A DNA stretch of 64,000 bases from Eledone cirrhosa (Eukaryota), in the NCBI GenBank assembly GCA_964016885.1, contig OZ024749.1, positions 51,832,001 to 51,896,000 on the forward strand. The letters run 5' to 3'. Made by a program: the position numbers and the translations under genes. Numbering within the stretch: position 1 is the stretch's first letter; the number at the start of each line of letters is the position of its first letter. Shown here in pieces: positions 56,701-64,000 of this stretch. Under the pieces are notes generated by a model that saw nothing but the letters and a program-made list of their open reading frames with translations, did not search any database and was not told the origin of the DNA.

Positions 56701-57555
56701 TGTTCCAGCCTCGCTATCACCGGTTGCTAGTGTGTTGGCTTGCCTCAAACATTTCCTTTGACCTTTGTGATGTGATGTGTGACCAATTATCGCACTTGTT
56801 CATGAATTGATGGTCGTTTTTGTATCCCTTTTTTTTTCTTTCTCAATTAGATAATATATTTTATTGCGTTATATTTGTGAGGTTCCTAGCAGTAATTAAT
56901 TGTATTTATTATATATGTTTATATGTGTGTTTATATTGTGTGTTTATATTTTCATTCTGAAATAATTGTGAACAATTTGTAATGTTATTTATAGAACTGT
57001 AAATAAAATAATTTTCATCTAAAAACTGTTTATTTAAAACCAATTATCCAAACGTTTCTATTAACTACAATAGAATCAAAACAGTATTATAAGAATACAG
57101 ATTTTAAATAATACTTCACTACCTTGAAATCATTCAAGTTTATAGAGTTTTTTGTTTGTTTGTTTTGGTTTAGTTTTCATAACTTTTTTTAATTAGTAAC
57201 GTTCTTCTTTTTTTTTTTTCTTTTGCCGTATATAATTTATTTCGAACTCAAATTTTTTTATTTTAAAAAGTGAAAAATAAAAGGAATTATATTTTCCTTT
57301 TTTTTTTATTATAATTTTTACCTTCAAGTTATTTGGGATTTTCAAAACTTATTTCACTTTTTTTTTTTTTTATTTACCTGACTTTACAGGTTTTACAGGT
57401 GTGCTATTTGAAATAATACAACAAACTTATCTCCCTTCTTATTGTCCCATTTCTTCAGGTGTGATTAATGGTTGACATACAATACAAATAATGAAGTAAA
57501 CACTTGTAGTGTTAATATTGTTCAGTATAAACGGTTATTTTAAATATATATCAAA

Positions 57556-57628
57556 ATGTTTCTAACACACGTTAAGAAAACTTATCAATTACTAATACTG
57601 GCCATTGGATTTTTAAATTTTTCTGAAG
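57556..57628 (+). CDS. CUB-LU exon 1 (signal peptide MFLTHVKKTYQLLILAIGFLNFSE)
   Basis: AAAATG context, hydrophobic core, GTATG donor phase 1. Confidence 0.72.
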
Positions 57629-59715
57629 GTATGTTTCAAGATTTACCTGTCTTTTTTTATTGTTTGTTTGGGAAAATCTAGATCAGATCGACACAAACTG
57701 ACGAATTGATTGTTTTCATTCTTTTTTTTTAATAAAAACTTCATTTGAATTTGGTTAATTTATACATAACCAATACTTCTTTAAAAGTATTGAAAAGTGA
57801 ATACATAATAAACACACATACATATACCTATATATTCTATTTATTATGCTGTAGTATATTTTTAGTTTATTAATGTGTATGTATATGTGTGTGTCCGGAC
57901 AAGGGCGGAGTTTTAATACAATGGCAGTTTCTTTTTAAGGCTTGGTGCCTATAGTAGAAATCATGATTAAGGCATGTCCATGCTCGTTTTTTAGTCGTAT
58001 TTCATACCAATTATCAATTCTAAAATAGGCTAGACAGTTTAAATAAGTTCATGATTTGAAGGAACTGACACAATTCGAAGATGTACTCTCGGGTCCCAAA
58101 TAATGGGGGTAGGTGCAGTTGGAATAAGCGGGGGAGTTATAATAAACAGGGAGTTGGAATTAGTGGGTGGGGGACGATTATTCGAGATCCGTGAGTATGA
58201 AATGAATCGATTCTTGTGGGTCGATCAAGTGTCGAAACTTGCTGTATTTATCATGAGTGAATACTCGCCACACGAATTGAACCTAATTCACAAGGCACTT
58301 TTCTTCTTTGGATTTTTTTTATTGGAAAGGGAAAGAAATTCTTCATATTTTCATAATTTGTATATGTATGACTTATTTTAGTATTGATCATTCATTTGTA
58401 TTGTTAATATTGTTCATATAAAATGAAAACAAAGGGAGTGGCAGCAGAAACAAAAACGAAAACGTCCATCAATTCACCACCAAGTACGACAATCTGCCGC
58501 ACATCATATAAGGGTTAACGGAACACTTTGAGGCAAGCCAACCTCTCGCAACATTACCACGGGTAGTGGTGGAACTAAGGCGCTGAAACAACCATTTTAT
58601 CTATTTGTACAACTATTATACAACTGTGAATAAAGAATTTCTAAGTTTGAAGTTGAAAGAAATAGCTACACGCATATCTGACCAGCAAATCCATTTTACG
58701 AATAGTTAAAAGCCCCCCCAAAAAATTATAAAATCTCCCTCCTTTTCTTTCATTGCTTCATTCTTTATTTCTTTTTCTTCTTTTCATTTCATTATTTATT
58801 ACTATTGTTTTCTGTTCCCTTTAGCGGTGTGTTATTGTCTATAGCCTGTTGCATTGCATATGTAAACAGGTAAGGCAGAAGAGTGTCTCCTTGTAGTACC
58901 CTTTGTCTTTGTAAAATAAAATAACTTAATAGTGTGATTATCACATTTTAAAAAATGGACCTGAGTCAATATCCCTTCAATTCCTGAGCCACTTGGATTG
59001 TCTTGGGTCGATGGGAAGAGGCCTCATCAAGACTGGGTTAAGTCGTTTGAGTCTGTAAGGACTTGAAACATTATGGATCATATTGGATCACTGACAATGA
59101 AGTGTTTGTCATCGTCACTCATCTTATCTTACTGAAGTATTCCGGTGATGCTTGGCTGTTCCAGTTCCAGCACCTCAGACACGCTATCATGTGTAGTAAC
59201 ACCTTGAGTGTTTTGAGTTGCCTCAAAAACTTTTAGAGGGCAACACCTATTGTTGATGTTGTAGTTGTTGTTGCTTACTACTGGAAGACATCTTTAGAGA
59301 GCAACACCAATTGTTGTTGTTATTGTTGTTGATGTTATTGATGTTTACTACTGGAAGACCCCTTTAGAGGGCAACAGCAATTGTTGTTTACTAATGGAAG
59401 CCATTTTTATTTTCTTCTGTCTTCTAGCTGACTTCATTGTGATGCCTGAAATTTGTTCCAGAGAAATGAGCATAAGAGTTGAACAGATGAAATATGACTT
59501 TGAATCTGTAATTGTAGCTCATAATAAAAAAGATAGTGAAATACATTACTCCCAATGTGACAGTGTTCTTACTATAATAGGAATTGATAACTATCAGTTT
59601 GATTTTGAACTCCAATCACTTGACATCCGTCCTCCTCATGATGGTCGCTGTATTGATTCCTTAAAATTTTTTAATGGTAAATATTTTGTTTTTTATATGT
59701 TTCTGAATTACATGA

Positions 59716-59753
<38 letters not shown>

Positions 59754-61821
59754 ATATATATCAAGTGAATATTAAGACAGAAGTTACATAATCATAATTA
59801 TTGTTATACGTATTTCTGTGACACCGACATGGAGCTGTTGTTAAATTTAACAGCGACCTGCACCAGTGTGACATCATCAGATGTTAACATAAATATTGCT
59901 AGTGGGTTGATATGTTGTTGGCTAACGCAAACCTAACCCTTTAGCATTTAAACTGGCCATATCTGGCCAGAATTCTCTCACCTCTTTCTGTTCATACTGA
60001 CTGTAACCAGCTGCTCACACTTATGTTAGGGTATTATTCTCCTTTACCATGAAAATACAATAGTAAATATAGGGTAGTTAAATGCTAAATGGCTAACACT
60101 AATTTATTTATTTCAATGCTTTTTCCTCATATATTTTGTTTTATCAAAACAGGGCCTCGGGTTGACAATGCCAACATTCTGACACCAATGGGTGGACTTT
60201 GTGGTAATTCATTGCCACCAAAGACATCTTTTAAAACCAGTCGTAACTACTTGACTGTTCGTTTCAAAATTGATAGTTACAATAATGAAAAATATGAGGG
60301 ATTTGCTATCAAAATTCAACAACATGAATGGAGCAGTCCTGTCAACTCCCATGGTGGAGGATTTAATCCTGGTGGTAAGTAACAAATATATTATATTTTT
60401 ATTTTGTATTTGATATAATCTAAGTCAGCTCTTGTGTAAAGAAGGGTAGTTTACTCTCCAGAGACCCAGATTTATACAGGACGTACTAAAAAGCAAACTT
60501 AGCACAGGCAAGAGATCATGTGACCAGGGCCGGATTTAATGGGGGGAGGGGCAAAGGAGACAATTGCCCCAGGCCCCCACCAGTGACAGCCGTAGCAATA
60601 TATTTGTGCCCTCAGCTGGGCTTTTTTGTTTTAGGATGATTAGAATTTTTGAATTTAATATCTGTATATATAACTTTTCAATTCCAATTTTTTATGGTTT
60701 AATATTTTTGTCAGACCAACATAAAGTTGAGTCAATCGATATAACATGAGGTTTATTTTTGTCATATAATATTAAGAAAACTGACGAGCTGAGGTGTACC
60801 TGTATTTTTATTTCTAATAGAGTTACTTTTCATTTCAGGATGGAATGATGGTGTCACATCTTTATTTCAATGGACATGGGATCTTCAAGTGAGAGTTCCT
60901 GGAAGTTCTTTACCTAGACCAGGTCAAGATCTAGAGAAAAGCCGTAAAGGCATCGAATGTGTTGAATGTACAAGCTGTACCCTTAGAGATTTTGATTGGG
61001 ATCGAGATGTTTTCACTCTTGCTAGTGGTTGCTACGTTTGTGCCAAACAATGGGATATATGTAAGTTCTAAATGTCTTAATCTTACCATATTCTGTATAT
61101 TTCAACATGATATTTCAGGGCTATTGGGCAGCATGGAAGTTTTAAAGGCTGCAGTGTCCCAACAGCTAACAACTGATGTAGGTAGTTTGTATGGTATTTT
61201 ATGGTATTTTATCAATTATGTCATTTACCATCCTTAAAGTACTTATAGTTTTAATATTTTAAAATAATTATTTCTACTTTAAATTCACTATTTTCCATTT
61301 GTCTTTTCAGCTTATAACACAGCCCAGCGAGCATGCTACTCACAACGATCCTATCTCAGTTTAATCCGCAGAATTAAAGGTAAGATATTATTAATTCAAC
61401 ATCACCATCATTTATCTTACATCCGGTTTCCATTCTGGAAAAGTTTGGGTAGATTGTCACAATCCAATACAGTTCTTATACAGAGTTATTGCTCTCCTAC
61501 ATATGTTAAGGACCATGTTTCACTAACATGTTCCAATTTTTGGCATATGTCAAAACAAAACAATCAATGTGTTCTTCCCTAACTGTTTTGTTTTGAACTG
61601 TTTTTGTTTTTACATTTGAAAAGAAGGTACTAGCCCTGAAATATTATATTGAAATATACTGGGTAAAAACATTACTTTGTTTTGTTTTATTTGTCATCCT
61701 TTGCCCTTTATATATTTCTACCACATTGTACTGGCTTTCTGAAACTTAGTCATTTATTATATAGCTCACAATGCTTCATTTATTATACTACTTAATATAT
61801 ATATACATATCTTTCTCTGTA

Positions 61822-61863
<42 letters not shown>

Positions 61864-63287
61864 AAAGGTAAACAGAAATAACAACACAATCGGTACAGTA
61901 TATGGAAGGTTTAGATTAAGTTAACGCTTGATATAGCAGGAAGAGGGTCTTAACATTTCGGACGCTAGTCCTTCATCAGAAGAAAGAATGGGAAATAAAA
62001 TAGATTAAGGGGACGGGCGGGATGGAATTGGAAAAAATGTCTTTAGATAAAAATAACAGGTCCATTCATGTTGACATCTCTTATATATATATATAATAAT
62101 TGTTTCTACTTTAGGCACAAGGCCAGCAATTACCCAGTGCATTACTGGTACTTTATTTTATCGACCCCGTAAGGGTGAAAGGCAAAGTCAACCTCGGCGG
62201 GATTTGAACTCAGATTGTAAAGGGACGTAACTATGCTGGAAAGCATGGCGTCCGACCCTCTACCGATACTGCCAAAATAATAATAATACAAGGACGATTT
62301 GTTAAGCCTTCATTACGTTTATTGATTGGTGATGCGCGTTTCACTATTGATCAGCTCAAAGTTCGATCTGTATCGATCTGGCTCAACTCTGGAATCAAAA
62401 GCATGTCAGACCTCTGCTGTAGTAATGACAGAATGAATATATAAGACAATCAAAACAATATAAATTGATCAACTTATGAACGCGAAACGTTAGACATTTC
62501 TATACCTTATATATTCATTCTGTCATTACTTCAGCAGAAGTTTGACAGTCTTTTGATTCCAGAGTCGGGCCAGATCGATACAGATCGAACCTTGAGCTGA
62601 TCAATAGCGAAACACGCGTCACCAATCAATAAACGTAATGAAGGCTTAACAAATCATCCTTGTATATTACACTGTCTGGCTCAACACCTCGCCACTGACG
62701 TGAACCTAAACATTGAGTGCTCACCTGGGTTAACCTACAGTAACTTCATGTTACACTCCCTAGATATATATGTATATATGTGAAGGCACATGGCCTAGTG
62801 GTTAGAGCATTGGGCTTGCAATCGAATGGTTGTGGGTTCAATTCTCGGACCGGGTGATGTGTTTTTCCTTGAGCAAGACACTTTATTTCACGTTGCTCCA
62901 GTTTACTCAGCTGTAGAAATGAGATGATAGGACTGGGGTCCCTATCATTAAATCACCCAAGACACCTCCAACGAGATATACCTTGGAGGAGGCCAGCTAA
63001 ACTGCATAGGTGTGAGCTGTAACAACAACAACAACAAAATATATATATATCTTTCTTTATGTGTATATATTATATATAGCTATTTTCTTTTATTTTTAGA
63101 TCCATCAATTAATCTGGATGATCCTGTAACATCAGGGAAGATACTAGGATGTCATCGCTACAGTAATCCATATGGAGTTCAAATAAACTACTGTTTTTGT
63201 GATGAAAACCGTTGTAATAATTCCAGAAGAAATCTACCTTTGAACATATTGTTGTTGACTCTGGTTATACTTATACTGCAACTGTGA
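57556..63287 (+). CDS. Secreted CUB-domain + Ly6/uPAR (quiver/sleepless-like three-finger) protein, predicted GPI anchor, 340 aa, 6 coding exons
   Basis: Exons 57556-57628, 59428-59676, 60153-60374, 60839-61060, 61311-61379, 63100-63287; all GT-AG, all introns phase 1, total 1023 nt. Signal-like N-terminus. CUB motifs (4 Cys, C.DSL.FF.G, GLCG, S.N.LTVRF..D, EGF.I). 10 Cys with IECVECTSC start and CFCDENRCN end. Hydrophobic C-terminal tail. Confidence 0.88.
58830..58903 (-). mobile_element. Decayed LINE RT fragment
   Basis: Translates GVLQGDTLLPYLF. Confidence 0.55.
59428..59676 (+). CDS. CUB-LU exon 2 (CUB N-half)
   Basis: Polypyrimidine acceptor; F..LDI...C.DSL.FF.G. Confidence 0.9.
60153..60374 (+). 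CDS. CUB-LU exon 3 (CUB C-half)
   Basis: GLCGNSLP...TSRNYLTVRFKID...EGF. Confidence 0.92.
60839..61060 (+). CDS. CUB-LU exon 4 (linker and LU N-part)
   Basis: IECVECTSC...GCYVCAK; GT-AG. Confidence 0.9.
61311..61379 (+). CDS. CUB-LU exon 5 (SYNTAQRACYS...)
   Basis: R.C motif of the LU second finger; GT-AG. Confidence 0.88.
61948..61983 (-). ncRNA. Minimal type-I hammerhead ribozyme motif
   Basis: Minus strand reads UCUU CUGAUGA A GGAC UAGC GUCC GAAA UGUU AAGA. Confidence 0.58.
62100..62273 (-). mobile_element. SINE family A copy
   Basis: Near-identical to 34721-34906. Confidence 0.85.
62284..62668. repeat. About 160-bp imperfect inverted repeat in CUB-LU intron 5
   Basis: 62284-62445 is the reverse complement of 62504-62668; related sequence at 50895-51010. 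Confidence 0.85.
62782..62925 (+). mobile_element. tRNA-derived SINE, family B (CORE-like domain)
   Basis: TGGCCTAGTGGTTAG A-box, GGTTCAATTC B-box, CCTTGAGCAAGACACTT core; related copies near 850-955, 4470-4600, 6790-6985, 19770-19900, 26220-26510, 54940-55260. Confidence 0.8.
63100..63287 (+). CDS. CUB-LU exon 6 (CFCDENRCN and GPI signal)
   Basis: C.C....CN terminal LU motif followed by NNS and a hydrophobic tail. Confidence 0.92.
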
Positions 63288-64000
63288 AAACATTTTGTTT
63301 GTTTTTTTGTGTGTATCTGACTCATATGAAACATAGACATTGCCGTATTGTATTCAGACATTCATATTTCTGTACAAATCCATTCTACATGGGTAAAAAT
63401 ATATTCATAAGATCTCATCATAGACATATACAAGAACATATCTTCTTCTTTTTCTTCTACTTCGTCCATTTATTCCTGGGAGGTTTGTTGGGGTAGAGTC
63501 CTCAAACATTCCTTCCATTAATTCTCTCTAACTTGTTGTTGTTAATGTCCATTTGAGTTTTGTTAAATTGGCACAACTAACAACACAGAACTTGAGAATT
63601 GACGCTTACGAATCATAGCTATGAAAGGATATCTTCTTATCTTATTTATCCACTTATTCCGGGGGGGAGGGGTTCGTGGGAGCTGAGCCTTCAAACACTC
63701 CTTCCTGCAGGTCCTGTCAGAAACCAGAAGCAACTGTTTCCAGTTGATCTGGTTGAATCCCCAAGTGAGACCAACCAAGCTCATGGATGTTATCCAACCA
63801 TCTTACTTACTCAGGGTCTATTCCTGGGTCTCTCGCCGGTTGGTTTTGCCCATAAAATCTGTCAGCTGACCCTTTCCTGATACATTCTAACCACATGTCC
63901 GTAATATCAGAGCTGTTATTTTATTGTTAAAGATCTTTGACCAACATTTACATCAATTTTAATTCTTTTAATACCAAACTGCCTGGAACTGTCCCGGATT

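Follow-up and report, generated by a model that had tools for sequence, protein, structure and literature searches.

One spliced gene of Eledone cirrhosa encodes a protein in which a CUB domain is joined, through a linker, to a predicted three-finger (LU) domain followed by a likely glycosylphosphatidylinositol (GPI) anchor. The gene stands in a 64,000-nucleotide stretch of contig OZ024749.1 (here C9, positions 51832001-51896000), called the window below and numbered from its first letter, in an assembly of 3.0 Gb, and the encoded protein is nearest to those of octopods. This CUB+LU architecture is real, old and mollusc-wide, and it is apparently undescribed. The new elements are a conserved W/G motif in the linker, the loss of a predicted CUB calcium ligand in coleoids and a probably separate CUB+LU protein in an annelid. 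With a probability of about 0.45, the molluscan protein is tethered by GPI and assists a conserved receptor or channel of the membrane, as its co-receptor or auxiliary subunit.

The open reading frame is distributed over six exons (Table 1) and remains open throughout, with five introns that are all bordered by GT-AG and all of phase 1. Splicing and translation give 340 residues including every part that the initial annotation had recognized, i.e., a signal peptide, a CUB domain with four cysteines (34, 68, 99, and 124), a linker, and an LU domain with ten cysteines (222, 225, 228, 246, 249, 264, 296, 310, 312, and 317), the last being followed by NNS and by a hydrophobic tail ending at the last residue of the protein. 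The identity with the Octopus vulgaris orthologue reaches 78%. Four public runs from one study (X1 to X4) carry this DNA, none of them being recorded as RNA. Contigs from runs X1-X3 pass unspliced across exon borders. Run X4 yields a single contig of 1,548 nucleotides without any mismatching letter, spanning exons 1, 2, 3, 4, and 6 in order as pieces 57464-57626, 59426-59675, 60152-60373, 60838-61060, and 63098-63600. The 67 unlisted letters between the last two pieces correspond to exon 5 minus two letters counted at exon 6. Because this contig is spliced, X4 is taken as RNA. A processed DNA copy is an unlikely source, because exons 3 and 4 each match the host genome once. The contig includes the junction between these two exons, whose absence would, according to the initial annotation, have pointed to two separate genes, and thus places them in one transcript. 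The introns of the gene carry high-copy repeats, with depth peaks near 59930-60080 and 61940-62360.

Orthologous models with the same layout are found in other octopods, cuttlefish, snails, and bivalves. A search with exon 4 gave three octopod proteins among 6 candidates. A profile built from four sequences detected 48 representatives out of 1.84 billion, and another built from 14 sequences detected 20 proteins in a set of 2,129 candidates. Full-length members occur in cephalopods (Octopus, Argonauta, and Sepia), in gastropods (Patella, Gigantopelta, Pomacea, Babylonia, Nucella, Aplysia, Elysia, Plakobranchus, Biomphalaria, Bulinus, Lymnaea, Physella, Candidula, and Bradybaena), and in bivalves (Mercenaria, four scallops, Tegillarca, Pinctada, oysters, and Mytilus). 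All of them are labeled in databases as uncharacterised, hypothetical or "CUB domain-containing". The family includes the octopus genes LOC115222183 and LOC106878819, LOC101861519 of Aplysia, and LOC105347086 of an oyster. For the 59-row alignment used below, models that were fragmentary, over-long or redundant were set aside, as were stray members of clusters (a cytochrome c1, for instance). In a tree built from 39 rows (roughly one for each species), for which the tree tool warns of long branches, cephalopods (100/100) and gastropods (99/99) are strongly supported, bivalves more weakly (83/79), and the expected subgroups are recovered. The gene tree tracks mollusc classes and orders, the only expansion being near-identical pairs in two Saccostrea species, and the coleoid branch is long (1.71 with a midpoint root). 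The whole reads, from these sequences, as one orthologue inherited from the common ancestor of gastropods, bivalves, and cephalopods. The architecture is apparently undescribed, as had been supposed, but it is no cephalopod specialty.

The assignment of both domains rests on relatives and predicted folds, as Pfam alone calls neither of them in the octopus protein. Models of the O. vulgaris orthologue have a mean predicted local distance difference test score (pLDDT) of 62.7 with 14 alignment rows and 69.2 with 59 rows, and they predict two separately folded domains joined by a flexible tether (predicted template modelling score 0.46). Their CUB beta-sandwich matches solved CUB domains with Z 14.2-14.4 and a root-mean-square deviation (rmsd) of 2.2-2.3 over 115-118 residues, and with E 2.4e-7 by Foldseek. 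The top fold matches, at Z 13-14, are TSG-6, cubilin, neuropilin, and PCPE-1. The four CUB cysteines are kept in relatives. The Pfam CUB profile (PF00431) passes the cut-off in 7 of the 12 family members scanned and matches 42 of the 59 at E <= 0.1; none of the octopod proteins is above the cut-off, Eledone exon 3 reaching only E 0.058. The profile match anticipated by the initial annotation was therefore obtained for the CUB domain in relatives, and neither for octopods nor for the LU part (see below). A sequence search of the PDB gave no match for the single protein, and profiles matched only CUB proteins plus chance rows. Weak Pfam matches to PH_met_RdRP, zf-Vps39_C, NCD3G, DUF6664, and BRO1 were taken as chance.

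The calcium-binding subtype of CUB domains has three acidic ligands. Their positions in the family are presumed here from the CUB signature placed on an alignment to neuropilin-2 and cubilin. The predicted first ligand is acidic in all 48 gastropod and bivalve rows and in none of the 11 coleoid rows. It is Arg92 in the Eledone protein, which therefore lacks the three-acidic-ligand pattern. The second predicted ligand is Asp in 59/59 rows, and the third is Asp (37) or Asn (11) among the 48 gastropod and bivalve rows. Since the coleoid rows are related, the loss of the first ligand would represent one event and not eleven. The half of the CUB domain encoded by exon 2 is also the fastest-changing domain part among cephalopods, with 64% identity to O. 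vulgaris versus 84-92% in the LU parts.

The ten cysteines of the C-terminal part are present in 57 of the 59 rows, the other two being truncated, with spacings of 2, 2, 17-19, 2, 14, 20-31, 13-15, 1, and 4-5 residues and a quiver-type ending C8-x-C9-x4-C10-N (x4 or x5). LU domains have the disulfide pattern 1-5, 2-3, 4-6, 7-8, and 9-10. Three hairpins are predicted with a pLDDT of about 70-85. Among the 50 matches listed, the four on residues 214-320 are all three-finger folds (Z 5.0-5.4, rmsd 3.0-3.8, 68-77 residues), namely chain C of ALK2-ActRIIB-BMP6 (5.4), chain C of lipase-GPIHBP1 (5.3), Lypd6b (5.1), and BMPR-IA (5.0). Against the family profile, a quiver-type protein from the Eledone genome gives an alignment with E 1.1e-4 and a probability of 56%, and, as a lead only, a molluscan QVR cluster ranks first (0.90) when the ESM Atlas is queried with the C-terminal part. 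Taken together, this evidence leads to accepting the C-terminal part as a divergent LU domain. A homodimer prediction for residues 23-318, run without alignment, gave no call in either direction (score 0.00).

The initial annotation treated the Trp/Gly/Pro-rich segment between both domains as a spacer. This 52-residue linker, however, contains the motif G-G-W-x-D-G-x5-Q-x2-W-x2-Q-x3-P-G (23 residues), of which the residues G, W, D, G, Q, W, and P do not vary across the 59 rows. Columns conserved in at least 90% of the rows amount to 10/23 in the motif, 22/142 in the CUB domain, and 18/100 in the LU domain, and the motif is the top or tied-top conserved region in 11 of 15 species-pair comparisons. 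By sequence comparison, it is the most conserved block of the protein. It lies almost entirely on exon 4, together with the first half of the LU domain, and its pLDDT is below 50 in both O. vulgaris models. A PDB search with an exon-4 profile that includes the motif turned up nothing beyond Cys-rich entries matched by chance (best E 0.053). Such a motif may fold on a conserved partner.

At the C-terminus, a GPI-type tail (small residues after the last Cys-Asn, 23-31 residues, and a hydrophobic end), judged by a simple rule of length and hydropathy, was found in 53 of the 57 rows having a tail. The protein is thus likely GPI-anchored, as far as its sequence can tell.

The preferred reading, a GPI-tethered co-receptor or auxiliary subunit, would work as follows. 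The LU domain would lie at the membrane and bind a partner located in that membrane, in the manner of quiver/sleepless and Belly roll. In the parts of both sources covered, loop 2 of quiver is reported to bind Shaker and nicotinic receptors (PMC4735452), and Belly roll is presented as a tethered cis-ligand of a G protein-coupled receptor (10.64898/2026.06.29.735401). The invariant W/G motif, unfolded alone, would fold on that partner and form the main specificity element. The membrane-distal CUB domain would hold a second extracellular ligand or matrix protein. In snails and bivalves it would do so through a calcium site, which coleoids have likely lost or retain in a weakened form.

Several known systems offer partial precedents. 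Drosophila Quiver/Sleepless (QVR, PF17064) shares the ten cysteines, the C-x-C-x4-C-N end, the GPI-type tail, a K after Cys 5, and an R two residues before Cys 6. The molluscan family differs from this stand-alone LU protein by its added N-terminal CUB domain and linker, by a C6-C7 segment of 20-31 residues with a predicted helix, and by falling below the Pfam cut-off, and any channel binding by this family is putative. GPIHBP1 is also a GPI-anchored LU protein, its chain in the lipase entry matching with an rmsd of 3.0 over 72 residues. Its LU domain is preceded by a disordered, functionally important segment that is simply acidic, without any CUB domain, whereas the corresponding segment of the family is a W/G/Q/P motif of fixed spacing. 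Neto1/2, SOL-1, and LEV-10 share the CUB fold (Neto2 chain, Z 10.1), and in the feature search with the whole protein SOL-1 clusters rank first with 0.79, a value within the chance range. These proteins have several CUB domains, mostly with an LDLa domain and a transmembrane helix, whereas the molluscan family has a single CUB and no LDLa match in 59 members. No special kinship to Neto can be claimed, because it ranks below TSG-6, cubilin, neuropilin, and PCPE-1. The Drosophila Belly roll protein, a cis-ligand of AstC-R2, is a GPI-anchored LU protein that, like the molluscan one, could act on a receptor of the same membrane; its abstract names no CUB domain, and the likeness is drawn from its description (10.64898/2026.06.29.735401).

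Several observations weigh against this reading or against the domain assignments on which it stands. The best Pfam QVR match reaches 15.9 bits (E 0.027), below the cut-off of 27.3 bits; only 2 of the 59 members match at E <= 0.1, and the Eledone protein has no Pfam LU/QVR match. The LU fold matches, with Z near 5, are in the range that the structure tool calls common, and the spacings C2-x2-C3 and C4-x2-C5 are unlike those of quiver, whose loop II also has 19 residues versus 14 in every row of the family. The tip of this loop is acidic or polar, and no Arg or Lys is conserved there in the alignment. Snake toxins and Lynx1 use a conserved Arg at the acetylcholine site. A loop II lacking a conserved cationic tip argues against a toxin-like block of that site. 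The low model confidence of the linker may just reflect a shallow alignment (an effective number of sequences, Neff, of 23). Four Mytilus rows (P0072, P0132, P0134, and P0136) have a tail of about 50 residues with a basic end, perhaps through a switch of this orthologue from a GPI anchor to a transmembrane helix. One M. galloprovincialis model carries a short tail. A search of the open literature for 12 gene/protein identifiers yielded nothing on partners, tissues or phenotypes, and the octopus gene identifiers were not found in the supplements searched of PMC9712504, PMC9815951, and PMC13230822, which is uninformative on expression. Finally, fly LU proteins also serve in septate junctions, according to the part of PMC6600238 covered, so that the LU fold does not fix the function.

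These junctional proteins of the fly are GPI-anchored, which makes an epithelial role the first alternative to weigh, although it is an unlikely one. The protein would organize septate junctions or tether a matrix such as cuticle, shell or mucus, with its CUB domain gripping a matrix partner, in line with the matrix binders PCPE-1 and TSG-6 among the top CUB matches. That every row from a shelled gastropod or a bivalve retains the predicted calcium ligand, and that coleoids have lost it, suits this role, but the shell-less sea slugs Elysia and Plakobranchus retain it as well and cuttlefish, with their mineral cuttlebone, have lost it. None of the 12 identifiers was found in the open full-text literature.

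A developmental co-receptor or decoy for growth factors (BMP/activin or Wnt), with an LU side like BAMBI/LYPD6 and a CUB side like Kremen/neuropilin, is less probable still. Matches listed for the LU fold, among them TGF-beta receptor ectodomains and Lypd6b, point in this direction, as do neuropilin and Kremen among those of the CUB fold, and an old, unexpanded, and slowly changing gene would suit development. However, these fold matches are generic, with 12-15% identity, the cysteine pattern ends, as in quiver, with C-x-C-x4-C-N, and in the feature search QVR clusters come nearest, an activin-receptor cluster appearing only at rank 27.

Both domain types have roles in fertilization elsewhere, with fish Bouncer for LU and spermadhesins for CUB. 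Spermadhesins are among the CUB fold matches, and the rapid change of the exon 2 half in cephalopods could be that of a gamete-recognition protein. This role is nevertheless improbable, as O. vulgaris and O. bimaculoides are 89-100% identical in every region and broadcast spawners and internal fertilizers alike have kept the gene.

The initial annotation proposed a modulator or adaptor of Cys-loop or glutamate receptors, a role that stays putative, and saw a special link with the chemotactile receptors of cephalopods. In the host genome, 26 of 111 matches to Cys-loop receptors are arranged in tandem within about 0.3 Mb (C11:23.62-23.92 Mb; L008, L010, L011, and L013-L016), most of them in intronless open frames of 380-430 residues, presumably a chemotactile receptor array. 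The long coleoid branch together with the loss of the predicted calcium ligand would permit a change of partner. An auxiliary subunit specific to these receptors is still very improbable, and the proposed link finds no support: orthologues in three classes and a gene tree following the species tree indicate that the gene predates these receptors, and it has one match per exon and is located on C9, unlinked to the C11 cluster.

That two adjacent genes, one for CUB and one for LU, were wrongly joined can practically be dismissed: one O. vulgaris model (P0001) lacks exon 3, and introns all of phase 1 would permit such in-frame skipping, but the X4 contig, as far as it represents RNA, joins exons 3 and 4, intron 3 has only 464 nucleotides without polyadenylation hexamer, and full-length joined models exist in three mollusc classes.

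A more specific form of the auxiliary-subunit reading is doubtful. According to it, the family would be a mollusc-wide auxiliary subunit uniting two classes of channel regulators in one GPI-anchored chain, the LU domain and the W/G motif docking a neuronal or muscle ionotropic receptor or a potassium channel, the CUB domain tying a synaptic or matrix partner, and coleoids having rewired this CUB domain by losing the calcium ligand.

Concerning the origin of the gene, single-exon fragments in other genomes begin and end at the same places, which speaks for ancient exon borders. In a quiver-type gene, the phase-1 intron that follows the exon for the signal peptide may have received exons 2-3 as a CUB cassette of phase 1-1, an insertion that keeps the frame because every intron is of phase 1 and that would predate the split of gastropods, bivalves, and cephalopods. 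No named non-molluscan protein was matched by the linker or the LU part, many short matches being unnamed, and the Lingula, Owenia, and Glandiceps matches cover the CUB domain only. In the annelid Owenia fusiformis, the uncharacterised proteins P0037 and P0044 (with the shorter model P0043, all three on a contig of identical length) share with the mollusc family a signal peptide, a CUB domain, a 10-Cys LU-like part, and a hydrophobic tail. They differ by the absence of a W/G linker and by a cysteine spacing of 2, 8, 11, 6, 19, 7-8, 5, 4, and 4, and only their CUB domain aligns to the molluscan profile. For these reasons, they are probably a separate fusion, the CUB-LU pairing having arisen twice. 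The closest CUB relatives include short proteins that combine CUB with LDLa and have a transmembrane or GPI-type C-terminus (P0040-P0042 and P0031, from a hemichordate, a brachiopod, and other sources).

In molluscs, LU fusions in general are common. The survey of LU proteins by Paramonov et al. (2026), covering 387 invertebrate genomes of which 25 are molluscan, lists 2,086 molluscan LU proteins (PMC13719153), and this list might include the CUB-LU family. In the main text parts covered, the fusions described involve C1q, fibrinogen-like, immunoglobulin, MAM, Kunitz, thioredoxin, permease, and seven-transmembrane modules (PMC13719153). Like the present family, they are lineage-restricted combinations of LU with an extracellular module, several of them from molluscs, and CUB is absent from these parts and from the domain legend (PMC13719153). 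The word does not occur either in the part covered of a starfish survey (PMC11595613). No description of a CUB plus Ly6/LU/quiver architecture was found in the open literature, which agrees with the initial annotation in knowing no characterised protein of this kind. The invertebrate survey was built on Pfam LU profiles (PMC13719153), which barely detect the LU domain in the 59 members. Pfam-based surveys would therefore miss the family, its LU domain being below profile cut-offs.

Table 1. Features of the CUB-LU gene in window positions.
Feature	Position	Strand	Basis or remark
5' untranslated stretch	57464..57555	+	spliced contig starts at 57464; in-frame stop just upstream of ATG
Exon 1: ATG and predicted signal peptide (aa 1-24)	57556..57628	+	contig; hydrophobic N-terminus also in relatives
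Exon 2: first half of CUB (aa 25-107), Cys34/68/99	59428..59676	+	reading frame, contig, structural alignment
Predicted calcium-ligand positions in exon 2: Arg92 (first), Asp101 (second)	59428..59676	+	
Exon 3: remainder of CUB, ending near aa 166 (base 60328), Cys124, Asp148, start of linker	60153..60374	+	Pfam CUB E 0.058; contig
Linker motif (aa 181-203), first codons at end of exon 3	60839..60903	+	alignment; unfolded in both models
Exon 4: linker motif and first half of LU, Cys 1-5, LU from base 60949	60839..61060	+	reading frame, contig
Exon 5: remainder of loop II, Cys 6, predicted helix	61311..61379	+	model; 67 contig letters of fitting length
Exon 6: Cys 7-10, hydrophobic tail, stop codon	63100..63287	+	reading frame, contig
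Predicted GPI attachment at or near Asn318	63216-63218	+	within exon 6
3' untranslated stretch	63288..63600	+	contig, which extends 120 letters further

In the neighborhood of the gene, no obvious long coding frame was seen in the 40 kb downstream. About 26 kb upstream, on the same strand, a frame of 486 residues (29845-31305, +) carries 26 near-identical 10-residue repeats ending with G-L-I/L, nearly all followed by G-K-R. It reads as an amidated neuropeptide precursor, which is presumably buccalin/allatostatin-A-like. Fragments at 9287-10588 (-) resemble the reverse transcriptase of a long interspersed nuclear element. Elsewhere in the genome, L002 (C3:117.73 Mb) and L003 (C4:316.60 Mb) are near-identical intronless quiver-type frames with identical upstream coding letters. 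L003 stops right after the last cysteine and thus has no GPI tail; it may have arisen by duplication or retrocopying, and its product may be secreted or the copy dead.

The gene already existed before the split of gastropods, bivalves, and cephalopods and has persisted ever since, apparently without expansion. Its presence in Aplysia, Lymnaea, Biomphalaria, oysters, and octopus makes it testable in standard preparations, and the invariant motif of the linker lends itself to use as bait in a partner search. If the protein turned out to act at junctions or in a matrix, it would be a modest addition to the list of LU fusions. If its partner were an ion channel, long-studied molluscan receptors would have an unrecognised subunit.

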